Source of the DNA: a virus
Taxonomy: Duplodnaviria; Heunggongvirae; Uroviricota; Caudoviricetes
Virus record (IMG/VR): IMGVR_UViG_2529292908_000017
Location: 1 to 9,888 of that record
Direction: 5' to 3' (one strand)
DNA length: 9,888 nt
Numbering within the stretch: position 1 is the stretch's first letter; every line of letters begins with the position of its first letter. The notes under the pieces are model-generated. The model was not told where the DNA came from. It saw only the letters and a list, made by a program, of their open reading frames with translations, and searched no databases. This document shows, piece by piece, positions 1-9,888 of the stretch. Both the position numbers and the translations under genes were made by a program.

Positions 1-1242
1 ATGGCGAGAAAAACACACCCATTAACCACAGTGCAGATCAAAGCAGCCAGACCAGCGCAAAAGGAGTACACCCTGCAGGACGGCGGAGGGCTTTTTCTCC
101 TGGTCAAACCGTCTGGATCAAAACTCTGGAGATTTTCCTACTACCGACCATCGGACAAAAAAAGAATATTGCTGAGTTTTGGATCGCTTGAAGATGTTTC
201 CCTGGCTGATGCCAGAAAACGCCGTAGCGAGTACAGGACGTTAATCAGTGCCGGAACTGACCCGCAGGACCACGAGAGGCAAAAAAGAGAGACAGAGGCC
301 CGAAGACAAGGGAACACGTTCGAAAATGTGGCGGCGGCATGGTACCAGGTGAAAATCAGCCAGAATCTGGCCCCCAACACGATTAAAGACATCTGGCGTT
401 CGCTGGATAAATATGTATTCCCGTTCATCGGCAACACGCCAATAGATACCCTCACCGCCCGAAGGTTCGTTGAAGTGCTTACCCCCATCAAGGAGCGCGG
501 CAACCTGGAAACACTCAAGCGGGTTTTACAGCGCGTTAATGAGGTAATGGATTACGCCGCCAACAGTGGGCTGATTGATGCCAATCCGGCTATGAATGTG
601 CGTAAGGCGTTTCCCTCACCTGTAAAAAAACATATGCCAACAATCCGCCCCGAACAGCTGCCGGAGCTTATGCAGGCTTTATCAGTATCGGCAACAGAAC
701 GGCAGACCAGATTACTGATTGAATGGCAGTTACTGACCGTAACCCGTCCCGCCGAAGCGTCATCAACGCGGTGGGATGAAATCAACCTGGACGCGAAGCA
801 ATGGACGATACCTGCCGGACGCATGAAGATGCGCAGGGATCACGTTATCCCGCTTTCCGGTCAGGCTATGGCGGTGCTGGAGGCCATGAAACCAATCAGC
901 CACCACCGCAATTACGTTTTCCCAAGTCTGAAAGACCCACAGCAGCCGATGAACAGCCAGACAGCTAACGCAGCATTGCGGCGTATGGGATTCGCTGGCG
1001 TGCTGGTGTCTCATGGATTACGCGCCATATTCAGCACAGCAGCGAACGAGGAAGGATTCGAGCCGGACGTAATAGAGGCGGCACTTGCCCACGTCGACAC
1101 CAACGAAGTTAGACGGGCATACAACCGGAGCAACTACATAGAAAAACGCATCGTGCTGATGCGCTGGTGGGGCGAATTTGTCGAGGCTGCGGCGACGGGC
1201 GTAACCCTCGCCAGTGGTAAAAGGGGTATCCGAGCCGTGTAG
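1..1242 (+). CDS. int: Tyrosine recombinase / integrase, P4-type (satellite / genomic-island family)
   Basis: 413-aa ORF starting at window base 1. N-terminal arm-type region (GGGLFLLVKPSGSKLWRFSYY) typical of P4-family integrases; C-terminal catalytic region with HGLRAIFST (H-x-x-R) and RAYNRSNY (tyrosine nucleophile region). Recognition by eye, no search. Confidence 0.9.
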   Translation: MARKTHPLTTVQIKAARPAQKEYTLQDGGGLFLLVKPSGSKLWRFSYYRPSDKKRILLSFGSLEDVSLADARKRRSEYRTLISAGTDPQDHERQKRETEARRQGNTFENVAAAWYQVKISQNLAPNTIKDIWRSLDKYVFPFIGNTPIDTLTARRFVEVLTPIKERGNLETLKRVLQRVNEVMDYAANSGLIDANPAMNVRKAFPSPVKKHMPTIRPEQLPELMQALSVSATERQTRLLIEWQLLTVTRPAEASSTRWDEINLDAKQWTIPAGRMKMRRDHVIPLSGQAMAVLEAMKPISHHRNYVFPSLKDPQQPMNSQTANAALRRMGFAGVLVSHGLRAIFSTAANEEGFEPDVIEAALAHVDTNEVRRAYNRSNYIEKRIVLMRWWGEFVEAAATGVTLASGKRGIRAV

Positions 1243-1319
1243 CTGTACAGAAAACCAGTAAAAACTACGAAAACCATGTAAAACCGTCGTATAATTGCAT
1301 CAAATTTAACGACAAGGCC

Positions 1320-1571
1320 GTGAAACATGAAACCGTTAAGATGCAAAAAAATATCAGATGCAATTGCGACGGGCTGCAACTGGCCCTGATGGTTCAGCAT
1401 GAATTTTGGTCAACCTACGATCCGGAGGACAGGACGACGGCCCCATCAAAAAAACAGGTAGTAGATTTTCTGGTATCCCGTGGCGCTTCCAGAAATCTGG
1501 CGGTAAGTATTGATAAGGTCGTACGTCCGGCATCTATGAAGATCGGAGGCAGGCCCAAAAAATGGCGGTAA
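1320..1571 (+). CDS. Hypothetical small protein (83 aa)
   Basis: ORF with AAGG about 10 nt upstream of the ATG, ending 10 nt before a strong intrinsic terminator. A TATAAT hexamer lies at about 1290-1295. No family recognised. Confidence 0.45.
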   Translation: MKHETVKMQKNIRCNCDGLQLALMVQHEFWSTYDPEDRTTAPSKKQVVDFLVSRGASRNLAVSIDKVVRPASMKIGGRPKKWR

Positions 1572-1580
1572 CAATCCTGG

Positions 1581-1606
1581 AAGCGGCAGAAATGCCGCTT
1601 TTTTTA
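1581..1606 (+). terminator. Rho-independent terminator
   Basis: Stem AGCGGCA / TGCCGCT (7 bp) with GAAA loop followed by a T6-7 run, immediately after the 1320..1571 ORF. Confidence 0.7.
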
Positions 1607-1629
1607 TAATTCCATTTCAAATCATCAAT

Positions 1630-1735
1630 ATAAAAAACGGTGTATACCGTTTAAAAACGGTGGGAACTGTTTTTACCCATATCCGATGATTTACCGTATT
1701 TGTCACCGGAATACACCGGATTCACAAGGTAAATC
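1630..1735 (+). promoter_or_regulatory. Putative promoter/operator region upstream of alpA
   Basis: 10-bp direct repeat AAAAACGGTG at 1633-1642 and 1653-1662; inverted half-sites ACGGT-N4-ACCGT at 1637-1650; direct repeat CACCGGA at 1704-1710 and 1714-1720; AAGG RBS at 1726-1729 before the ATG at 1739. Function inferred. Confidence 0.3.
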
Positions 1736-1738
1736 ACG

Positions 1739-1944
1739 ATGGAAGCAATCAGAAAAATTATCTTTCGCCAGGAAGTAAAAAAATTATCCACATCAAGGCA
1801 GACAGCACGCTGCAAAGCATGATCAACGCCGGAGAATTTCCGCAGGGTTTTCGCGTTGGTTTACGCCGTCGCGGATGGTATGAGGATGATGTGTTGGCCT
1901 GGCAGAAAGAACGCGAACAGGAAGCACGCGGAACGGCTGCTTAA
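1739..1944 (+). pseudogene. alpA: AlpA-family (prophage CP4-57-type) HTH regulator, apparently disrupted by a 1-nt frameshift
   Basis: Frame from ATG 1739 reads MEAIRKIIFRQEVKKLSTSRQTARCKA then stops (TGA 1820-1822). The -1 frame continues LQSMINAGEFPQGFRVGLRRRGWYEDDVLAWQKERE to TAA 1942-1944. Joined, they match the AlpA pattern (TG-x-SR-x-T-IY-x-hh-x-G-x-FP ... G-W-x-E-x-D-h-x-x-W). Length 206 nt is not a multiple of 3; shift localised to about 1803-1811. Confidence 0.6.
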
Positions 1945-2092
1945 CGGGTATCACAGATATGACAAACACGAAAAAAGCGGCCCCGATATGGAGCCGCCTT
2001 TCTGAACAATTAACCCGCTGCGCCTTATGTGTATGTGATCCCAAACATAAGCACGGGGATGATAGCCGCTATCAGGCTGGTGGGCAATGCAA

Positions 2093-2266
2093 TCAGTCTG
2101 GTTCAGTTCGTTGCCATACCTGCAATGAGCGCTTTTCCCTATACTCTTTAAGGAATTGCTCAAGGGCAAAAGCACATGGTGCGAATCTTTCTGATTCATG
2201 CTCTATCTTTCTGCGCCGTCTTTTCCGTGCCGGTGATAATGTTTTGGTCAATTCTTTATCGGTCAT
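2093..2266 (-). CDS. Hypothetical small basic protein (57 aa from second ATG; 62 aa from first)
   Basis: Minus-strand ORF MTDKELTKTLSPARKRRRRKIEHESERFAPCAFALEQFLKEYREKRSLQVWQRTEPD, with AGGA 7 nt upstream of the internal ATG (+ coordinates 2264-2266). Composition is protein-like, unlike the overlapping 186-aa + ORF. No homologue recognised. Confidence 0.3.
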   Translation of the reverse strand: MTDKELTKTLSPARKRRRRKIEHESERFAPCAFALEQFLKEYREKRSLQVWQRTEPD

Positions 2267-2692
2267 TGTGTTGTCCTGCATAGCAATACGCCGTAATACC
2301 TCACACCACGGCGCTGGTGATGGTTACTCCTGCTCTTTGGCCTTGCGCCGCTGGCGGCGTTTGATCTCACCTTTAACGGCAGTAACTATAAATTGCGCCT
2401 TGCTTTCACCTTCATCTAAATTTTTTCTAAGTCTGCAACAACATCATGCGGGAATCTGGCATTTAACTGTTGCGACTTATTATTTGTTGAACCTGTTGCC
2501 ATTACTGAATCCTCTCTAAGTTGGTGCGATTCAGTATACACAAAAAAAATTTCAGAGAAAGGCTTGAAGTGCGATTCACTTACTGATAGGTTAAAAACGA
2601 ATGGTGCGATGCACCAAACAACAACGCCCCGCAGTGGTGGCACACATGCAGGGCGTCTAACCACCAACGATAACGAGAGTATCGAGGTAGCT

Positions 2693-2896
2693 ATGAGAAA
2701 TCATACCACACACCCGCAAGGGCGGGACTCGCACGACCTGAATAAATACATCTGGCGTTTTATCGCCCTGAGCACGGCACAACCGCGCGTGATTACCATT
2801 GAGGCCACCAGCGAACAGGAAGCACGCCTGCAATCCCCGGCTGGCTGCGTGATGGTATTCGCTGCCCGTATTCGCCAGGGGTCACATCATGCGTAA
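2693..2896 (+). CDS. Small protein, paralogue A of a tandem pair; possibly Ash / Icd-like family (unverified)
   Basis: ATG 2693 preceded by GAGG (2684-2687). C-terminal motif YIWRF ... EATSEQEARLQSP ... FAARIRQGSHHA is repeated in the next gene, with synonymous third-position differences (CGT/CGC, CGC/CGT). The longer TTG start at 2564 in the ORF track has no credible RBS. Confidence 0.5.
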   Translation: MRNHTTHPQGRDSHDLNKYIWRFIALSTAQPRVITIEATSEQEARLQSPAGCVMVFAARIRQGSHHA

Positions 2897-3575
2897 AAAC
2901 CGCTTGCAAAAAATTATCACGGGGCTGTATGCTTCCCCCGTCGCCCACATGGCGACCGGGTTTAGCAGCCTGAATACATCTGGCGGACAGCCGCCCACAT
3001 CCGATAAGCGGTTTTTTTGTGTCCGTAAACCTACCCATACCCGCATTATGGCGGGGCGTAACGGGGGAGCCTTTGTGCTCGCTGGTTTCCAGATGACCAG
3101 TCTGCTAACCCTGTTACGTCTCGCCACCATGTTTAGCAGCGTAGTAGCGAGACTCCTTAAAATTCATCTGGGAGCCTTTCACATGGCTGTATTCGCACGC
3201 CCTTATTTTGTCTGGCGCTTTATGCAGTGCCTGACAGACAGTATTGCAATATTCACCGTTACCGCTGCCACTGAGCGCGAAGCACGTGCACAGCTGCCGC
3301 ACGCACATCTTATTTTTGTCGCCCGTATTCGCCAGGGGGGGGGAGTCATGCATAAAATACCCTTTGATGTTCTTGTTCATTCTGAAAACGCATTAATCCG
3401 CGCAAAGGAAATGGACGCATTACTACTTAAGTTAATTGATGTGCCGGAAAGTGGCGATGAATCTGATTCAATGATGTTTTCTGCCGTGCGTACGCTATTA
3501 ACGCCTGTTATTAATGAATTAAATACAGTGATGGCAATTCACGAGAATAATAAAGCGCAGCACAACGGAGAATAA
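2889..3575 (+). CDS. Composite ORF: N-terminal segment of unknown nature, then paralogue B (from internal ATG 3183 with GGAG RBS), read through a G9 tract into a 75-aa C-terminal segment
   Basis: Continuous 228-aa ORF; ATG 2889 overlaps the stop of the previous gene (ATGCGTAA). Residues from 3183 (MAVFARPYFVWRF ... TAATEREARAQLP ... FVARIRQGGG) parallel paralogue A. G9 tract at 3335-3343; with G10 the paralogue would end ...QGGGSHA* (compare A: ...QGSHHA*) and a separate ORF would start at ATG 3348. Confidence 0.4.
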   Translation: MRKNRLQKIITGLYASPVAHMATGFSSLNTSGGQPPTSDKRFFCVRKPTHTRIMAGRNGGAFVLAGFQMTSLLTLLRLATMFSSVVARLLKIHLGAFHMAVFARPYFVWRFMQCLTDSIAIFTVTAATEREARAQLPHAHLIFVARIRQGGGVMHKIPFDVLVHSENALIRAKEMDALLLKLIDVPESGDESDSMMFSAVRTLLTPVINELNTVMAIHENNKAQHNGE

Positions 3576-3580
3576 AAAAC

Positions 3581-3880
3581 ATGAAAAATAAAAATTCTGG
3601 CGTTACTGCCAGCGGCCCCGCTCGTCCTGAATTTATGAACGGCGATATTTACCGCGATAAATATGGCGGCATGGTAACGATTAAAGGCGTGGCAGAACGG
3701 CGCATCACCTACCGTCGTGAAGGCTACGAATATGATTGCGTGATGCCTGTTTATCAGTTTCGGCGTGATTTTTCTCTGGTACAGGCAGCGCCCCGCAGTA
3801 AACCAACCAGCAGGGAGAAAGCACGCGCCAATATTCAGGAAATAAAAAAGATGCTTAACGTATTCAGGGGTAAAAAATGA
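3581..3880 (+). CDS. Hypothetical protein (99 aa), translationally coupled to the primase
   Basis: ORF with GGAG upstream; its TGA stop (3878-3880) overlaps the primase ATG (3877-3879) as ATGA. Protein-like composition; family not recognised. Confidence 0.6.
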   Translation: MKNKNSGVTASGPARPEFMNGDIYRDKYGGMVTIKGVAERRITYRREGYEYDCVMPVYQFRRDFSLVQAAPRSKPTSREKARANIQEIKKMLNVFRGKK

Positions 3881-5625
3881 AACTGGCACCGAACGTAAAA
3901 AAACAGCCACGCGGAATAAAACACAAAGACACAGAGGTAATTATTTTCGCGGGTAGTGATGCCTGGTCGCACGCGAAACAATGGCAGGAGCAGGATGGCC
4001 CCGCATCCGGCGATAATGTGCCGCCTGTGTGGCTTGGGCCAAATCAGCTTGCCGAACTTGATGCACTGAAAATTGTTCCGGATGGGAAAAAGCGCGTAAG
4101 GCTGTACCAGGCCGGAGAACTGGATTTGGTGGAGACCAAAAAGATTGGTCAGAAGCTGGCGGCAGCAGATATTCAGGACGCAAATTTTTACCCCGAAGGA
4201 ATGCACGTCCAGAAGTGTGAAAACTGGCGGCGCTATCTGAATGCTGAGCGTGAAAATATTGCCGCAGGGCTTACCATGCCGGAGCAGAAAAATACGCAAC
4301 TGGCACAAATGGCAGACAGTGAGCGCGCGCAGCTGCTTGCCGAGCGCTTTGATGGCGTTTGTGTGCATCCTGAAAGTGAAATCGTTCACGTATGGCGCGG
4401 CGGGGTATGGTGTCCGGTCAGCACAATGGAGCTGAGCCGCGAAATGGTGGCGATCTATTCAGAGCACAGGGCCACTTTCAGCAAGCGCGTAATCAATAAC
4501 GCCGTGGAAGCGTTAAAAGTTATTGCCGAACCAATGGGCGAGCCGTCCGGCGATTTGCTGCCGTTCGCCAATGGTGCGCTTGACCTGAAAACGGGGGAAT
4601 TTTCCCCGCACACGCCGGAGAACTGGATCACCACGCACAACGGCATTGAGTACACGCCACCAGCACCAGGGGAGAACATCCGCGATAACGCGCCAAACTT
4701 TCATAAATGGCTTAAGCACGCAGCCGGAAAAGACCCGCGCAAGATGATGCGTATATGTGCCGCGCTGTACATGATTATGGCGAACCGGTACGACTGGCAG
4801 ATGTTTATTGAGGCCACCGGAGACGGCGGGAGCGGTAAAAGTACATTCACGCACATAGCCAGCCTTCTGGCAGGGAAACAGAACACGGTAAGCGCTGAAA
4901 TGACATCGCTTGATGATGCTGGTGGACGTGCGCAGGTTGTCGGGAGTCGTCTTATCGTCCTGGCTGACCAGCCGAAATATACAGGCGAAGGAACGGGCAT
5001 CAAGAAAATCACGGGCGGTGACCCCGTGGAAATTAACCCGAAATATGAAAAGCGTTTTACGGCGGTAATCAGGGCGGTGGTGCTGGCGACCAACAACAAC
5101 CCGATGATATTCACCGAACGGGCCGGAGGTGTGGCACGTCGTCGCGTGATTTTCCGTTTCGACAATATCGTCAGTGAGGCCGAAAAAGACAGGGAGCTAC
5201 CGGAAAAGATTGCGGCTGAAATCCCTGTGATTATCCGCCGATTACTGGCGAACTTTTCCGCCCCTGAAAAGGCACGGGCTTTACTCATTGAACAGCGTGA
5301 CGGTGATGAAGCACTGGCGATAAAGCAGCAAACGGATCCGGTTATTGAGTTTTGCCAGTTCCTGAATTTTCTGGAGGAAGCGCGCGGCCTGATGATGGGG
5401 GGCGGTGGCGATTCAGTGAAGTACACGACCAGGAACAGCCTTTACCGCGTCTATCTGGCGTTTATGGCATACGCAGGCAGGAGCAAACCGCTAAACGTAA
5501 ATGACTTTGGCAAGGCTATGAAGCCAGCCGCGAAAGTTTACGGACATGAATATATTACGCGGAAAGTTAAGGGAGTAACGCAGACTAACGCAATAACAAC
5601 AGACGATTGCGACGCGTTTTTATAA
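3877..5625 (+). CDS. Phage/plasmid primase-helicase, P4-family C-terminal domain / D5-like SF3 NTPase (satellite pri-rep type)
   Basis: 582-aa ORF with AGGGGT RBS. Walker A P-loop ATGDGGSGKST, followed by motifs typical of D5 / P4-alpha-type helicases (LIVLADQP Walker B-like, VVLATNN). Immediately followed by an iteron array. N-terminal ~300 aa not assigned. Confidence 0.88.
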   Translation: MKLAPNVKKQPRGIKHKDTEVIIFAGSDAWSHAKQWQEQDGPASGDNVPPVWLGPNQLAELDALKIVPDGKKRVRLYQAGELDLVETKKIGQKLAAADIQDANFYPEGMHVQKCENWRRYLNAERENIAAGLTMPEQKNTQLAQMADSERAQLLAERFDGVCVHPESEIVHVWRGGVWCPVSTMELSREMVAIYSEHRATFSKRVINNAVEALKVIAEPMGEPSGDLLPFANGALDLKTGEFSPHTPENWITTHNGIEYTPPAPGENIRDNAPNFHKWLKHAAGKDPRKMMRICAALYMIMANRYDWQMFIEATGDGGSGKSTFTHIASLLAGKQNTVSAEMTSLDDAGGRAQVVGSRLIVLADQPKYTGEGTGIKKITGGDPVEINPKYEKRFTAVIRAVVLATNNNPMIFTERAGGVARRRVIFRFDNIVSEAEKDRELPEKIAAEIPVIIRRLLANFSAPEKARALLIEQRDGDEALAIKQQTDPVIEFCQFLNFLEEARGLMMGGGGDSVKYTTRNSLYRVYLAFMAYAGRSKPLNVNDFGKAMKPAAKVYGHEYITRKVKGVTQTNAITTDDCDAFL

Positions 5626-5636
5626 TTTTTTGCAAT

Positions 5637-5865
5637 GTCTGTCTACCCTGTCTACCTGAGTAAAGAAAAATACATTTAATTCAGTATATTAACTTAGGTA
5701 GACAGCCTTTTTTCACTGTCTACCTACTATCTACCCTCTCTACCTGATTTTACCTGAATCAGACAGGGAGGTAGATACGGGGTAGATAGTGGATAAAAGC
5801 ACTCTACCCCGCTGAAAGCCGCGCCATTACTGGCATGAGAGCCAGTAAGGTAGATAAGGTAGACA
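5637..5865. repeat. Iteron array, putative replication origin
   Basis: About 11 copies of the heptamer GTCTACC / GGTAGA(C/T) in both orientations (e.g. 5641-5647, 5650-5656, 5697-5703, 5718-5724, 5770-5776, 5781-5787, 5849-5855, 5858-5864) around an AT-rich core (about 5657-5695), directly downstream of the primase-helicase gene. Confidence 0.65.
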
Positions 5866-5913
5866 AGGGGAGGCACAACTCAAAACTTTTTAAACGAGGG
5901 GGTAAAAATAAAA

Positions 5914-6171
5914 ATGCGCACATCAGGAAAACTTAATAATCAGAAGAAGCAGCATAACCGCGCCATTGACCTTACAGAGCACTGGCTGAGAGTGGCGATA
6001 AAAATCATCGACCGCAACACGGGGGAAGGATACGCGAAAGCACATCCCGACCTGATAAGCGCATTCATGACCACGGCGGCAGCAAACTTTGCCACGCTGA
6101 CAGAACGGGAGATTGCCGAAGCGGAACAGGTGACAACCATCAACGTTAAAACCGGAGAGCAGACAGCATGA
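5914..6171 (+). CDS. Hypothetical protein (85 aa), coupled to ssb
   Basis: ORF with GAGGGGG upstream; its stop overlaps the next ATG (ATGA at 6168-6171). No family recognised. Confidence 0.5.
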   Translation: MRTSGKLNNQKKQHNRAIDLTEHWLRVAIKIIDRNTGEGYAKAHPDLISAFMTTAAANFATLTEREIAEAEQVTTINVKTGEQTA

Positions 6172-6590
6172 CAGCACAGATAGCGGCTTACGGGCGGCTG
6201 GTGGCTGACCCGCAGTTAAAGACCACCAGCAAAGGGACACAAATGGCGATGGCGAGTATGGCGGTTCCCCTGCCATGCAGCCAGGCAGATGACGGAACGG
6301 CGACGATGTGGTTATCTGTCCTGGCGTTTGGCAGACAGGCCGACGCACTGGCAAAACACCACAAAGGCGAACTCCTGAGCGTGGCGGGTAATATGCAGGT
6401 GAGCCAGTGGACAGGCCAGAACGGCGAAACGCGGCAGGGCTGGCAGGTTATCGCAGACAGTGTAATCAGTGCCAGAACGGCGCGACCGGGCGGCAAAAAA
6501 GGTCAACAGGGGCAGGCTACTGACGCACTGAACAGGGCAAAACAACAGGCGGGAAATGATGATCCGTACGGGGATAACATACCGTTTTAA
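6168..6590 (+). CDS. ssb: Single-stranded DNA-binding protein (SSB-like OB fold with acidic C-terminal tip)
   Basis: 140 aa. N-terminal OB region aligns by eye with E. coli SSB (YGRLVADPQLK vs VGNLGQDPEVR; WLSVLAFGRQADALAKHHKGE vs [21 protein letters not shown]). Gly/Gln-rich linker and C-terminal DDPYGDNIPF resemble the SSB tail DDDIPF. Confidence 0.78.
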   Translation: MTAQIAAYGRLVADPQLKTTSKGTQMAMASMAVPLPCSQADDGTATMWLSVLAFGRQADALAKHHKGELLSVAGNMQVSQWTGQNGETRQGWQVIADSVISARTARPGGKKGQQGQATDALNRAKQQAGNDDPYGDNIPF

Positions 6591-6606
6591 GCAACGAGTA
6601 ACAGAG

Positions 6607-6628
6607 GCCGGAGCAATCCGGCTTTTAT
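6607..6628 (+). terminator. Rho-independent terminator after ssb
   Basis: Stem GCCGGA / TCCGGC with GCAA loop followed by TTTTAT. Confidence 0.65.
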
Positions 6629-6861
6629 CAGTTGAGTCCGTCACACTACGCAAAAAAAAGCCGGAATATTCCGACCCTTTCATCACCAAAGAGAATAATT
6701 TATGTCTTTGAACTTGTAACGCTGTACAGAATGACACGTAACGCCGGATAAATAAACGAAGATTGAAACTTTGCACACTATTGCATAGCAATGCATAAAG
6801 ATGCCAAACAAGGCAGATGATAAAATTAACGCGACACTTTTACTAAGTATTAAGAGGTTAT

Positions 6862-7902
6862 ATGAGTGATTTATATTCGCCAGCCATGTTAATACAGGTT
6901 GTTAATGCCGAAGATATTCAATGGCAGATTAATTCTTTATTTATAAACCTGTTTTTTAAGCGAGTCGTTACATTTGAGACGCGGGATATTGCGCTTGATA
7001 TTATTGACGATCCAGACATCCCGATGGCTGCATTTTGTTCCCCTATGGTTGGTAGTAAAGTCTCACGCGATGAAGGCTACGAATCAAAAGTAATTCGCCC
7101 TGGCTATATGAAGCCAAAAAGTAGTATCGACCCAAATAAAATAGCCGTTCGTCAACCAGGCGTATCACCTGAACAATTCAATGCATATTCATCACGCAGT
7201 TTCAAAATAAAGCGAGCGTTAGTAAGACAAGCGCAGGCAATTCGTGCGCGTATTGAGTGGCTTGCTGTTCAGGCGGTTACAACGGGGAAAAATATCATTG
7301 AAGGCGATGGAATTGAACGTTATGAACTGGACTGGAATATAAAACCACAAAATATTATCACGCAGTCCGGCGGCACGGAGTGGAGCGGTAGAGATTTATC
7401 AACATTTGATCCAAACGATGACATCGAAGAGTACGCAGAAATCAGCGAAGGTACTACAAATATCATCGTAATGGGCCGCAACGTATGGAAAAAATACCGC
7501 GCCTTTAAAGCAGTAAAAGATTGCCTTGATACTCGACGGGGATCTAATTCCATTCTTGAAACGGCCCTGAAAAATCTTGGGGATTCTGTAAGCTTCAAGG
7601 GTTACGTTGGCGATGTTGCTATTGTGGTATATAGCGGACGTTATACCGACGAGGACGGCAAAGAAAAATATTTCCTTGATCCTGATTTGATGGTGCTTGG
7701 CAACACATCATTACAGGGCATCGTTGCCTACGGTGGCATTCAGGATCCTGAGTTAATCAGAATGGGGCTGACTAAAGCCGAACTTGCGCCGAAAAATTAC
7801 ATCGTACCAGGTGATCCGGCTATTGAATATGTGCAGACGCACAGCGCACCGCAACCAATACCGGCCCGCATCAATCGTTTTGTTACCGTTCGCATTGGTT
7901 AA
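6862..7902 (+). CDS. Major capsid protein, phage lambda gpE family
   Basis: 346 aa with AAGAGG RBS. Long colinear matches to remembered lambda gpE: NIITQSGGTEWSGRDLSTFDPNDDIEEYA (lambda NITQSGGTEWSKRDKSTYDPTDDIEAYA); FKAVKDCLDTRRGSNSILETALKNLGDSVSFKGYVGDVAIVVYSGRY ... MVLGNT (lambda FKAVKEKLDTRRGSNSELETAVKDLGKAVSYKGMYGDVAIVVYSGQY ... MVLGNT). Confidence 0.9.
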   Translation: MSDLYSPAMLIQVVNAEDIQWQINSLFINLFFKRVVTFETRDIALDIIDDPDIPMAAFCSPMVGSKVSRDEGYESKVIRPGYMKPKSSIDPNKIAVRQPGVSPEQFNAYSSRSFKIKRALVRQAQAIRARIEWLAVQAVTTGKNIIEGDGIERYELDWNIKPQNIITQSGGTEWSGRDLSTFDPNDDIEEYAEISEGTTNIIVMGRNVWKKYRAFKAVKDCLDTRRGSNSILETALKNLGDSVSFKGYVGDVAIVVYSGRYTDEDGKEKYFLDPDLMVLGNTSLQGIVAYGGIQDPELIRMGLTKAELAPKNYIVPGDPAIEYVQTHSAPQPIPARINRFVTVRIG

Positions 7903-7911
7903 GGGGGAGCA

Positions 7912-8253
7912 ATGGCTACTCATTACACTGAACTCATGGCTGGCACTGAAGCACTGGTTACTACGTTGGGGATATTTTCAGCTAATAAAGGGGTAATTCC
8001 TGCATTTACGCCACTGATGCAAGAAGATGCAACTGGTGCACTGGTGGTATGGGATGGAACGAGCGCAGGCAAAGCTGTTTATGTTTCCGCTGTACAAATC
8101 GATACAGCGACAAAAACGCAGGCTCAGGTTTATAAAACCGGCGTCTTAAATGTTGATGCTCTGAACTGGCCTGAGTCTGTAACACAACTATCAGCAAAAG
8201 TTGCTGCGTTTGTTGGCTCAGGTATTTCTGTTCAGCCGCTGGCACGTGTGTGA
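7912..8253 (+). CDS. Head decoration protein, phage lambda gpD family
   Basis: 113 aa with GGGGGAG RBS. Matches remembered gpD: TPLMQEDATGALVVWDGTSAGKAV (lambda [24 protein letters not shown]), YKTGVLNVDALNWPE (YKSGTFRYEDVLWPE), AAFVGSGISV (TAFAGTAISIV). Confidence 0.85.
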   Translation: MATHYTELMAGTEALVTTLGIFSANKGVIPAFTPLMQEDATGALVVWDGTSAGKAVYVSAVQIDTATKTQAQVYKTGVLNVDALNWPESVTQLSAKVAAFVGSGISVQPLARV

Positions 8254-8262
8254 GGTACGAGA

Positions 8263-8607
8263 ATGATTGAAAGAGATAGTCAGCTACGAGAGCTATTAGA
8301 TATCGATGACAAAATGAGTTTAAGCGAGCGCCTTGTTGATATGGATCAGGTAGTGGAGCTTACAACCCTTAGCCGTCGCACATTGCTAAACCTTGAGGCT
8401 CGCGGAGAGTTCCCCGAACGCGTACAGGTTACGAAAGGGCGCAAGGCATGGTATTTAAGCGAGGTTGTTGCGTGGATTAACAACATTCCGCGCGCATCAA
8501 ATTATTGCCTTGTTCCCACCCCCGAAAAACCTGATGCGGCGTTATGCCTCAAGATTGAACGCGCCAGGCGTAATGCCCTGAAAGGACGCAATAAGTTGAT
8601 TGGTTGA
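8263..8607 (+). CDS. AlpA/MerR-like helix-turn-helix DNA-binding protein (114 aa)
   Basis: GAGG RBS. Central segment VVELTTLSRRTLLNLEARGEFPERVQVTKGRKAWYLSEVVAWI fits the AlpA / excisionase-type HTH pattern, with N- and C-terminal extensions. Lies between the decoration gene and cos. Confidence 0.65.
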   Translation: MIERDSQLRELLDIDDKMSLSERLVDMDQVVELTTLSRRTLLNLEARGEFPERVQVTKGRKAWYLSEVVAWINNIPRASNYCLVPTPEKPDAALCLKIERARRNALKGRNKLIG

Positions 8608-8631
8608 TGAAATTAGGGCCCGTTCTGGCTG

Positions 8632-8830
8632 GCGGGTCCTTTCCGGCGATCCGGCAGGCTACGGGGCGGCGACCTCGCGGTTTTTCGCTATTTATGAGCC
8701 TTTTCAGGGGGGTGGTGGTGGTTTTGTTGTTTGATCTATCTTTATGAATGAAAAGGGAAAGATGCAAGCAATACACCAACCTGAAGCAGTAATTAAGTTG
8801 GTGTATTAATGAAATCTCATCTGATGAACA
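8632..8830 (+). other. cos site 1 (+ orientation): lambda-like cosQ/cosN (cosN 8664-8675, GGGCGGCGACCT) followed by a divergent cosB-like region up to the terS start
   Basis: GCGGGTCCTTTCCGGCGATCCGGCAGGCTACG-GGGCGGCGACCT-CGCGGTTTTTCGCTATTTATGA is near-identical to the remembered lambda cos junction. Downstream lacks lambda R-site-like GAAACGACA elements but has an 11-bp perfect inverted repeat (8770-8780 / 8797-8807). Confidence 0.75.
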
Positions 8831-8837
8831 AAAAAAC

Positions 8838-9350
8838 ATGGCGAAAAGCTGCCGTGTAAGTGCGACAGCGTTCGACAAGTGGGGAGTAACTCCCGTTGAG
8901 CGTAAAGGCCGTGAGGCGTTTTATGATGTTGCCAGCGTGATAGAAAATAGGGTTAACAATGCAATTAGCCAGCTTATAAACGACAAAGGCGAGATTGACG
9001 ATGATGAACTTTTACGAGTCAGGATCAGATTACTGACAGCACAGGCAGAGGCGCAGGAACTTAAAAACGATCGCGATCGCGGTGACGTGATTGATACTGA
9101 GTTTTGCCTGTACGCGCTTTCAAAGCTGGCGAGTCAGATTTCATCAATCATGGACAGCCTCCCGCTTACTATGCAAAGGAGCTTCCCACAGATTACCCCC
9201 GCCATGCTGGATAGGCTTAAAAGGGAAGTGGTTAAAGCCTGTAATGCCAGTGCCAGAGTTGCCGACAACCTCCCACAGATACTGGCTGATTACTTGAAAG
9301 AAACAACCGGAAACGTACCGGAAAAGTTGCTACAGAAGAAAGGCGAGTAA
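8838..9350 (+). CDS. Terminase small subunit, lambda Nu1 family, with divergent N-terminal DNA-binding region
   Basis: 170 aa. C-terminal two-thirds matches remembered Nu1: LTAQAEAQELKNDRDRGDVIDTEFCLYALSKLASQISSIMDSLPLTMQRSFPQ (lambda LTRAQADAQELKNARDSAEVVETAFCTFVLSRIAGEIASILDGLPLSVQRRFPE). N-terminal ~45 aa only loosely similar. An upstream ATG at 8824 (MNKKTW...) is out of frame by 1 nt across an A7 tract. Confidence 0.85.
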   Translation: MAKSCRVSATAFDKWGVTPVERKGREAFYDVASVIENRVNNAISQLINDKGEIDDDELLRVRIRLLTAQAEAQELKNDRDRGDVIDTEFCLYALSKLASQISSIMDSLPLTMQRSFPQITPAMLDRLKREVVKACNASARVADNLPQILADYLKETTGNVPEKLLQKKGE

Positions 9351-9369
9351 CAGACGCGCAATTATTGAA

Positions 9370-9580
9370 CAAAACTGAGAAACGACATGAAAGCGTCATA
9401 AATCGCCATTTTAGATGATTACCGTGTCGTTTCTTTTTATTGTGTATCTATTTAAAAACAAATAGTTATGTTCGAGAAGTACCGACATGCTTTTTCCAGA
9501 AAATTTTTCATAAACAGATAAAAACCGCGAGGTCGCCGCCCCGTAACGGGTCCATAATTCCAGGAAGGACCCGACGACAC
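9370..9580 (-). other. cos site 2 (inverted): cosN at 9530-9541 with a lambda-like cosB (R3 / IHF-I1 / R2 / R1-like elements) on the terS-proximal side
   Basis: The reverse complement reads ...CCCGTTACG-GGGCGGCGACCT-CGCGGTTTTTATCTGTTTATGAAAAATTTTCTGG ... CGAACATAACTATTTGTTTTTAAATAGATAC ... AAAGAAACGACACGG ... CATGTCGTTTCTCAG, paralleling the remembered lambda left end (cosN, I1 IHF site CGTCATAACTTAATGTTTTTATTTAAAATACC, R2 GGAAACGACAGG, R1 CTGTCGTTTCC). No terminase gene follows in this orientation. Confidence 0.7.
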
Positions 9581-9606
9581 CAGACAATCAGAACGATGGG
9601 TGCACA

Positions 9607-9888
9607 ATGACAGAAGCCGAAATACTGGGATTAATCCGCCGTGCTGGTGGAATCAGCCAGCAGACTGACGAACAGGCCACGCAGCCGGACAGCGTGACAG
9701 CCGAAAATTATGCGCGTGTTGTTGCTGAGGTGATGCGCCGTGATGGTATCCAGCTTAATGATGTGGATATGCGCAACATACGGATCCGCGTTCTTGAAAT
9801 GCTGGCCTACCGTCGCCGCGTGCAGACGTACAGGGAAAAAGCAAAAATTACGTACCACTGGAAGAAGCCGGAGCGGTTACGGCGGTAA
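9607..9888 (+). CDS. Hypothetical protein (93 aa)
   Basis: Complete ORF ending at the last base of the window (TAA 9886-9888). Weak RBS. No family recognised; Arg-rich C-terminus. Confidence 0.45.
   Translation: MTEAEILGLIRRAGGISQQTDEQATQPDSVTAENYARVVAEVMRRDGIQLNDVDMRNIRIRVLEMLAYRRRVQTYREKAKITYHWKKPERLRR

Follow-up and report, generated by a model that had tools for sequence, protein, structure and literature searches.

Tandem Icd-like genes around a C4-type antisense RNA gene: a probable P1/P4-type immunity switch in a PICI-like satellite

Among the described systems, the closest to the locus analyzed here are the immunity region of P4 and the immI region of P1 and P7. The locus lies in a 9888-nucleotide (nt) stretch of DNA (hereafter the window, i.e. 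the whole stretch analyzed; IMG/VR virus record IMGVR_UViG_2529292908_000017, positions 1–9888; Caudoviricetes), which is a capsid-encoding satellite resembling the phage-inducible chromosomal islands (PICIs). Between an alpA-family regulator gene and a D5-type primase gene, the window carries two small paralogous genes of the Icd-like family (copy 1 and copy 2), and the approximately 290 bases that separate them are neither spacer nor protein but a C4 antisense RNA gene with its target sites. The order is copy 1, the a1/b1 targets, a hairpin with a T-run, C4, the a2/b2 targets, copy 2, a 75-amino acid (aa) open reading frame (ORF), a DUF4222 gene and the primase gene. With the C4 cassette between them, the copies are better read as leader cistrons in an early operon under RNA control than as free-standing accessory proteins. 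Specifically, they are probably (at about 0.7) Icd/Kil-family cistrons built into an RNA immunity switch of the P1/P4 type, which controls the early (replication) operon of the satellite.

The immunity region of P4 includes PLE, seqA, the cI RNA, seqC, the nested kil and eta genes, epsilon and the alpha primase. In the published mechanism (Forti et al. 1999, as summarized in PMC10111431), a constitutive promoter lies inside eta, and its transcript is terminated via CI/seqA interactions and gives CI upon processing. Kil is a shortened form of Eta; the full-length protein is made only when transcription comes from an upstream late promoter, its translation is coupled to that of the alpA homologue, and this translation prevents termination. 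The likeness to the window begins with the RNA genes, as the Rfam C4 model matches P4 cI (74.9 bits) and the isrK and a1b1 models match seqA, and extends to the proteins: Kil is a 65-aa Icd-like ORF (NF033153) directly after cI, with a stop codon that overlaps epsilon, a longer in-frame ORF (Eta) begins upstream of the RNA genes, and an alpA-family gene lies upstream and the primase downstream. At the sequence level, the window has the same nested layout, in which a long in-frame ORF, coupled to the gene before it, begins ahead of the candidate internal promoter and the RNA genes. The differences are equally specific. The C4 of the window is of the P1/P7 rather than the P4 sequence type; P4 Eta consists of the Pfam Phage_ASH domain (residues 22–146, 82 bits) and the Icd-like domain, whereas the Eta-like extension of the window lacks the Phage_ASH signature; the Eta-like ORF is coupled to copy 1, whereas P4 Eta is coupled directly to the alpA homologue; a divergent YlcI/YnfO gene and candidate operators are inserted between alpA and the cassette; and the downstream genes are the 75-aa ORF and DUF4222 in place of epsilon, orf151 and orf106.

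To immI of P1 and P7, the window is 75–79% identical at the nucleotide level from b1 to a2. The annotated order in P1 is promoters, a1, b1, c4, a2, b2, icd and ant, and the window aligns with it column for column; in P1 and P7, the stop codon of icd overlaps the start of the next gene; and the variation among the satellites falls on precisely those two loop/target sites by which P1 and P7 differ. The window combines a C4 match above the gathering score, complementary a1/b1 and a2/b2 with b2 at the ribosome-binding site, and a downstream Icd-family gene of the coupled kind, although in the window itself a run of nine G residues replaces the coupling with an in-frame fusion. However, P1 and P7 have neither the upstream Icd-like copy nor the Eta-like extension; icd is followed there by the antirepressor gene ant, whereas in the window the regulated downstream gene is not ant and the 75-aa ORF, DUF4222 and the primase occupy this place; and the upstream promoter of P1 and P7 is controlled by C1, whereas the candidate operators of the window co-vary with a YlcI/YnfO-family protein. 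The third relative is the IsrK small RNA of Salmonella Gifsy-1 (Rfam RF01394): the segment with a1/b1 and the terminator (2940–3018) scores 36.8 bits in the window, under the gathering score of 50, compared with 52–63 bits in P4 and in the related loci L003, L004 and L018.

The Icd-like family, the C4 RNA and the P1/P4 mechanisms are already known, CI/seqA homologues in PICIs have been noted, and the C4 and isrK models have been found to match several PICIs of Gram-negative bacteria (PMC10111431). We found no description of an operator-controlled upstream Icd-like cistron that hands over to an Eta-like frame across a P1-type C4, or of a long frame kept open antisense to a repressor gene. Gram-negative PICIs and capsid-forming satellites are usually described as AlpA-activated; silencing of the replication genes and avoidance of cross-talk between related satellites within one cell are less described.

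The antisense RNA cassette and its specificity

Coordinates are those of the window, and genes, reading frames and RNA features are on the plus strand unless marked otherwise. The C4 gene (3044–3131) matches the Rfam C4 model (RF01695) over its full length, with 72.7 bits against a gathering score of 45 (E = 4.7e-13); its b' loop (CCAGATG) is at 3089–3095 and its a' loop (CTGCTAA) at 3102–3108. The upstream target region (2927–2983) contains a1 (TTAGCAG, 2962–2968) and b1 (CATCTGG, 2977–2983), and the Rfam c4-a1b1 model matches at 2927–2976 with 45.5 bits (E = 4e-9; gathering score 46.7). The downstream target region (3133–3174) contains a2 (3133–3139) and b2 (3165–3171), the latter overlapping the Shine–Dalgarno (SD) sequence of copy 2 (GGGAG, 3170–3174); the distance from the end of C4 to the start of copy 2 is 52 nt.

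Two further elements complete the leader. A candidate internal constitutive promoter of the C4 transcript (2904–2933, plus strand; TTGCAA, 18 nt, TATGCT) was identified by alignment to the annotated P1 promoter, and its -10 hexamer lies about 3 nt off the column of the -10 hexamer of P1 P1c4 (P51b). A hairpin followed by a run of seven T residues (2985–3018) closes the isrK-like match on its 3' side; it is a candidate for the intrinsic terminator of the leader and is conserved in P1, P7 and the satellites. A scan for consensus promoters and terminators listed neither of the candidate promoters (that of copy 1 and the internal one) nor the isrK-type hairpin, the latter because its loop is too long for a simple terminator scan. 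Upstream of copy 1, an Rfam search of 1940–2760 for C4, SymR or another RNA yielded nothing credible.

The pairing between C4 and its targets was assessed in seven distinct modules (the window, three Escherichia coli satellites, Escherichia sp. MOD1, P1 and P7). The C4 loops form standard pairs with a2/b2 in all 98 of 98 cells, and 8 of the 14 pairs have changed on both sides; with a1/b1, 85 of 85 cells are paired, with compensatory double changes in 6 of 13 pairs. In slid controls, only 25–56% of the cells are paired downstream, and 15–56% over both target sets. The loops and targets vary at the same two sites at which P1 and P7 differ; the a-site of the window is of the P7 type and its b-site is its own. 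In an RNAduplex cross-matrix, the cognate duplex of the window C4 is stronger than the non-cognate ones by about 10 kcal/mol or more, and in the other rows the cognate duplex is the strongest in most, not all, cases; the calculation was run on whole C4 cores, and the predicted structures are long and not for literal reading. This three-way co-variation of the C4 loops with both target sets is the pattern left by an antisense immunity determinant whose specificity diversifies.

In the related loci L003 and L004, a second complete isrK/C4/Icd cassette occupies this upstream position (at 2007–2467 and 1988–2448, respectively), with loops and targets that differ from those of the first one, so that one satellite can carry two RNA immunity specificities in series. 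As a separate observation, SymR-like antisense RNA matches, with 45 and 36 bits (gathering score 61), occur in L013 (2923–2997, minus strand) and L017 (2902–2973, minus strand), directly upstream of and antisense to single-copy Icd-like genes of Rahnella and Tenebrionibacter; judging from their position, these matches may represent a different RNA control of the Icd-like family.

The Icd-like copies and the Eta-like frame between them

Copy 1 (2693–2896) encodes 67 aa, with the start codon ATG at 2693, an SD sequence (GAGG) 6 nt before it and the stop codon TAA at 2894–2896. Copy 2 (3183–3347, ATG at 3183) is the first cistron after C4. The first-pass annotation of this DNA described two tandem paralogous small proteins between alpA and the primase gene, with a common motif and an identical 18-bp core, and this description holds: both copies follow the pattern W-R-F ... 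E-x-EAR ... P ... F-x-ARIRQG, 19 of 46 residues are identical (41%; BLASTP E = 4e-11), and the string GCCCGTATTCGCCAGGGG is found at 2864–2881 and 3321–3338. The accompanying argument, that synonymous third-position differences indicate constraint on the protein, also stands, given that 12 of the 19 identical residues have the same codon and seven a synonymous one, and that the differences at codon positions 1, 2 and 3 number 19, 18 and 30. The exact 18-bp identity is peculiar to the window, as copy 1 of the relatives has CGT, not CGC.

Both copies belong to the NCBIfam family NF033153 (phage_ICD_like; a 48-position domain with a curated cut-off of 25 bits), copy 1 with 69.1 bits (residues 19–62, E = 2.5e-19) and copy 2 with 53.8 bits (residues 9–51, E = 1.5e-14), compared with 76.1 bits for P4 Kil and 52.6 bits for P1 Icd as controls. 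P1 Icd and P4 Kil align with both copies, RefSeq labels homologues of both ‘Icd-like', and 56-aa homologues of copy 2 are annotated in E. coli. The family search suggested by the first-pass annotation thus succeeds with NCBIfam; in Pfam, copy 1, copy 2, the extension between them (2889–3182) and the fused ORF (2889–3572) have no family match. An exhaustive profile search delineates the family at 316 cluster representatives (E <= 0.001). When copy 1 was compared by tblastn with 50,697 phage records, the single match was a 16.5-kb induced element and both P1 and P4 were missed; the sensitivity of BLAST is too low to reach them, and the link to P1 and P4 comes therefore through hidden Markov models (HMMs).

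The first-pass annotation named, besides Icd-like, the Ash family, and here the suggestion is close but the assignment fails. No window ORF matches Phage_ASH (PF10554; gathering score 26 bits, search at E <= 1), whereas Phage_ASH corresponds to the Eta extension of P4, and an ‘ash family' pseudogene of L004 lies over the second C4 (27.6 bits). Its suggestion of a role in helper derepression, which is the role of P4 epsilon, lacks support, the homologues with known phenotypes being P1 Icd and P4 Kil. The labels ‘Icd-like', ‘Ash family' and ‘transcriptional repressor' (in PHROGs and the P4 RefSeq record) are pieces of one Kil/Eta-type nested arrangement over RNA genes. Several annotations illustrate how these labels arise. 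The Pfam Phage_ASH family models the Eta stretch that overlies seqA/cI, and RefSeq labels the RNA part of the second cassette in L003 and L004 an ‘ash family protein' pseudogene. In the P4 record (L019; 8168–8584, minus strand), a legacy coding sequence named ‘cI gene product/transcriptional repressor' is the C-terminal part of eta over the cI RNA, and the PHROG label ‘transcriptional repressor' of Icd-like proteins (phrog_6196, phrog_1743) appears to be descended from it.

The segment between the copies is also an open frame. The Eta-like N-terminal extension (2889–3182) passes across a1/b1, the hairpin and C4 and joins copy 2 in frame, and its ATG (2889) overlaps the stop codon of copy 1 (2894–2896). 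Without exception in the tandem-copy satellites compared, namely the window and nine related loci, this frame has its first ATG at the overlap with the copy 1 stop codon and stays open as far as copy 2; in relatives, RefSeq annotates the extension and copy 2 together as a 154-aa ‘Icd-like protein'. P1 and P7 lack the extension and have just 14 open codons upstream of icd despite the conserved c4, so that the open frame is not a side effect of RNA conservation. On this comparison, the ORF from ATG 2889 corresponds to P4 Eta and copy 2 to Kil/Icd, the latter because P4 Kil and P1 Icd belong to the same NF033153 family. The ORF 2889–3575 (228 aa) as such was rejected as a single protein: its codons 1–98 overlie RNA genes and its last 76 codons are a separate gene in those relatives in which the G run before it has seven residues.

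All of the Icd-like genes examined end in a characteristic way, with an SD-like run, 4–6 bases and then an ATG that overlaps or abuts the stop codon. This coupling cassette is found in P1, P7, the window, four loci of E. coli, 10 of the 12 loci from other Enterobacterales species and six contigs of metagenomic or viral origin, and it implies that the C-terminal ‘RIRQG..HA-stop' is partly a nucleotide-level signal, which explains why the two copies are most alike in DNA sequence toward the 3' end. Indeed, the nucleotide likeness of the copies extends beyond the protein motif (TCATGCRTAAAA) to the SD sequence, the ATG of the next ORF and the stop codon, and the conservation at the 3' ends is partly at the nucleotide level.

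The upstream region, the proposed switch and its alternatives

The alpA-family gene (1739–1944) is frameshifted in the window, as found by three-frame translation and alignment to the AlpA/helix-turn-helix genes of L001, L002 and L004; the break is at a run of seven A residues (1777–1783), where eight would restore ...EVKKIIHIKADSTLQSMINAGEFP.... A long open frame begins 14 nt past the alpA stop codon. In the window, its upstream part (1959–2519) is antisense over two minus-strand genes and is followed by 2420–2896, in which the frame of copy 1 is open from 2420; if the 1-nt deletion in the run of six T residues at 2421–2426 is repaired, the frame is continuous to the copy 1 stop, for about 313 codons. 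The minus-strand genes are a 62-aa gene (phrog_21027; 2093–2281, E = 1.6e-15) and a YlcI/YnfO-family gene (2324–2502), identified by an HMM match in the window and alignment to the intact genes of L004 and L002, and frameshifted by the same deletion at 2421–2426; the L004 orthologue matches NF041551 (E = 1.5e-17). The product of the YlcI/YnfO gene is probably the repressor that acts on the divergent promoter region.

Between ylcI and copy 1 there are three repeats of the form GTGCGAT(T/G)CA (GTGCGATTCA), at 2524–2533, 2569–2578 and 2604–2613, found by a repeat search and considered candidate operators. They lie around a candidate promoter of copy 1 that was read by eye (-35 TTGAAG, 2564–2569; TGn-TAGGTT, 2584–2592). 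The operator-like repeats change with the YlcI variant, to TGGAATCCA in L001 (about 2860–3000) and to GTGTATKTCA in L002 (about 1715–1860), which suggests an operator and repressor pair.

Most of the related loci keep the frame of their upstream Icd-like gene open over 190–396 codons, back to just after alpA. In the relatives, this frame has 0–1 stops per 300 codons, compared with 10–24 in the other two frames; in five loci, such openness was reached in none of 20,000 shuffles (P <= 1/20,000); and the 172 codons of L001 that lie outside the minus-strand genes contain no stops, compared with 11 and 19 in the other frames. The phase of the frame relative to ylcI is constant wherever the frame is open. 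The frame has no Pfam or NCBIfam domain, and gene callers render such frames as ‘proteins' of up to 644 aa with odd composition and without domains. For the overlap region, the two-strand ratio of non-synonymous to synonymous substitution rates (dN/dS) is unusable, as the divergence between the window and L002 is either too small (about 99% identity) or too large.

Taken together, these elements suggest how the switch could operate. In the repressed state, the constitutive promoter just past copy 1 would make a leader from which C4 would be processed; C4 would pair with a2/b2 and block translation of copy 2, and the genes up to the primase would be silenced too because they are translationally coupled, probably with the aid of premature termination. 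Upon induction, translated transcripts would start further upstream, at the operator-controlled promoter of copy 1 or from alpA via the long frame; ribosomes ending copy 1 would re-initiate at ATG 2889 and read in frame over a1/b1, C4 and a2/b2 into copy 2, and translated upstream transcripts would be insensitive to C4, as in the case of P4, where Eta does the same for Kil. Copy 1 would then be an extra upstream Icd-like cistron behind an operator-bearing candidate promoter. By analogy with P1 Icd and P4 Kil, the Icd-like domain, when expressed, probably arrests host growth or division.

The chain of coupled frames might be continuous from alpA to the primase gene (through ATG 2889, ATG 3348, the DUF4222 gene at 3581 and the primase gene at 3877), in which case it could be read as an extension of the P4 Eta principle. 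More tentatively, and with the odds leaning against so complete a picture, the satellite could maintain an unbroken relay of coupled frames from alpA to the primase gene, including a frame of about 300 codons selected seemingly for openness alone, with each Icd-like domain ending one leg, ribosomes overriding both the C4 block and Rho-dependent termination, and duplication of the Icd cassette stacking tiers. Under such a relay, the frame of about 300 codons would be antisense to the YlcI/YnfO gene, to a second minus-strand gene and to the divergent promoter region; each leg would end in a built-in SD-ATG-stop hand-over; and the stacked tiers would consist of a protein repressor and one or two RNA immunities in series.

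Several observations count against the proposed switch. The c4-a1b1 and isrK matches in the window are slightly under the Rfam gathering scores, and the two promoters, read by eye, score too low to be listed by the consensus scan. Homopolymer indels interrupt the long frame, ylcI and alpA in the window, and copy 2 is fused to the next ORF, through sequence errors or because the element is decaying. Synonymous-codon shuffles of ylcI in the loci with an open frame yield P values of 0.03–0.87, a weak signal; few stops are expected in this phase anyway. The extension at 2889–3182 has no match to Phage_ASH or another family in Pfam and NCBIfam, and in close relatives the openness of the Eta-like frame is partly inherited. 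Most of the Icd-like loci in other genera are single-copy, with C4 undetectable, which implies that the Icd-like family is not dependent on C4. Finally, the case for transcription, RNA processing, translation and toxicity is built from sequence comparison.

The independence of the family from C4 is also part of the best-surviving alternative, under which the copies are mainly free-standing small effectors, i.e. cell-division inhibitors, toxins or abortive-infection proteins, and the adjacency of C4 reflects silencing of a toxic gene. This alternative, which overlaps with the proposed switch but puts the activity of the protein first, is possible, even if the organization of the locus leans away from it. 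Low dN/dS values among orthologue pairs imply that both copies are real coding sequences: the ratio is 0.05–0.20 for copy 1 (vs L001 and L002) and 0.03–0.46 for copy 2, with nine synonymous and one non-synonymous differences between the window and L004 in the latter case, and both copies are under purifying selection. An AlphaFold2 (AF2) model of copy 1 predicts with confidence a compact beta-beta-alpha-beta core (predicted local distance difference test score of 84–90). Cell division is reversibly blocked by P1 Icd, which is also required for the expression of ant (PMC8201110), and P4 Kil is lethal to cells (PMC10111431). In E. coli ECOR61, Silas et al. (bioRxiv 10.1101/2023.04.06.535777) describe a cell-death/exclusion locus of a prophage, with a primase, that causes cell death when a phage accessory gene (the orf24 trigger) is expressed; the gene order is as in the window, although the two loci were compared by description only, and the trigger and the phenotype are experimental findings for the ECOR61 locus alone. 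If that locus is built in the same way, deletion of its ‘Icd-like' gene would remove C4 too, and ‘Icd-like' knock-outs in defence screens accordingly need careful reading. The coupling cassette that overlaps the next gene, the upstream frame that is open over hundreds of codons and the place of one copy upstream of the immunity RNA are all left unexplained if the copies are effectors above all.

It is improbable that copy 1 is a role-less relic of a tandem duplication of the c4-icd cassette. Such duplications do occur, as L003 and L004 show with two complete isrK/C4/Icd cassettes in tandem, and paralogue chimeras that join the N-terminal half of one copy to the C-terminal half of the other (P0108, P0139, P0290, P0297 and P0121) are common; among the chimeric proteins, one 204-aa product covers two domains. 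The tandem cassettes and the frequent chimeras together indicate that the copies arose by cassette duplication and recombine, and recombination between tandem copies would delete or duplicate the C4 cassette; the lack of a detectable C4-like RNA upstream of copy 1 in the window fits with a relic as well. However, copy 1 is intact, with the low dN/dS given above, and is annotated as intact in the examined tandem-copy E. coli loci; in RefSeq, ‘Icd-like protein' appears at least twice under all 30 best of the 1,841 matching records; copy 1 has its own SD sequence and an operator-flanked candidate promoter; and the register between its coupling cassette and ATG 2889 is preserved exactly across all the tandem-copy loci compared.

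The last alternative, raised in the first-pass annotation as the outcome that would undo its proposal, is that what is repeated is an element of RNA or DNA, with reading frames that are coincidental; this is partly true of the 3' ends, where the 18-bp identity runs into the SD, ATG and TAA, and it draws on the region between the copies, which consists of RNA genes annotated as protein by RefSeq, but for the gene bodies it is very improbable in view of the excess of synonymous change, the HMM family shared with the experimentally studied P1 Icd and P4 Kil, the 50% nucleotide vs 41% protein identity with differences mostly at third positions, and the lack of an Rfam match on either copy.

Downstream genes, homopolymer runs and distribution

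The 75-aa ORF after copy 2 (3348–3575; phrog_2196) is in the position of P4 epsilon and P1 ant. It is followed by the DUF4222 gene (3581–3880; Pfam PF13973, E = 1.7e-24), the stop codon of which overlaps the start of the primase gene (ATGA), and by the D5-type primase gene itself (3877–5625; Pfam D5_N, DUF5906 and Pox_D5), the last link of the chain of coupled ORFs. Further genes of the window encode an integrase, a single-stranded DNA-binding protein (SSB), a lambda E-type capsid protein, a gpD-type decoration protein, a second AlpA-like protein and a Nu1-type small terminase.

Copy 2 has no stop codon of its own in the window because of the run of nine G residues (G9; 3336–3344, plus strand), which reads it in frame into the ORF that starts at ATG 3348 and stops at 3575. 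Among nine sequences, the run is G7 in six, G6 in one, G8 in one and G9 in the window. With G7, copy 2 ends in ...RIRQGGSHA-stop, overlapping ATG 3348, and the two genes stay separate and coupled; with G6 or G9, copy 2 is fused to the 75-aa ORF, and with G8 it acquires a 20-aa out-of-frame tail. The context of the G-tract from metagenome and viral scans covers six loci, which show that G7 is usual but are too few to call phase variation. The run in ylcI has six A residues on its own strand (the plus-strand T6 run at 2421–2426) vs seven in L004. There are, accordingly, three homopolymer indels within 1.7 kb (alpA, ylcI and the G-run), for which sequencing error is the simplest reading, with decay or slippage as alternatives.

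The module matches 1840 of the 5426 complete E. coli genomes, i.e. about one-third. A very common E. coli satellite module carries an antisense RNA immunity cassette of the P1/P4 type, the loops of which diversify in the manner of P1 vs P7.

Several minor features flank the module. A strong terminator-like hairpin with a T6 run lies just past alpA on the minus strand (1971–2003); it presumably ends the ylcI-side transcript, and the long frame on the opposite, plus strand continues across it. The leader of copy 1 contains a 10-bp inverted repeat (2624–2656; ACGCCCCGCA / TGCAGGGCGT) followed by TCTAACCACC, which is similar, in the same orientation, to the 3' portion of C4 and is conserved in L002–L004. 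The int-alpA RNA (RF02996), which is not detected in the window, scores above the gathering threshold in L007 (117–185) and L017 (264–329). Between the primase gene and the next ORF (5704–5801), a microRNA hairpin model matches weakly on both strands (E = 0.08 and 0.48), which points to a long palindrome, possibly an origin or a terminator.

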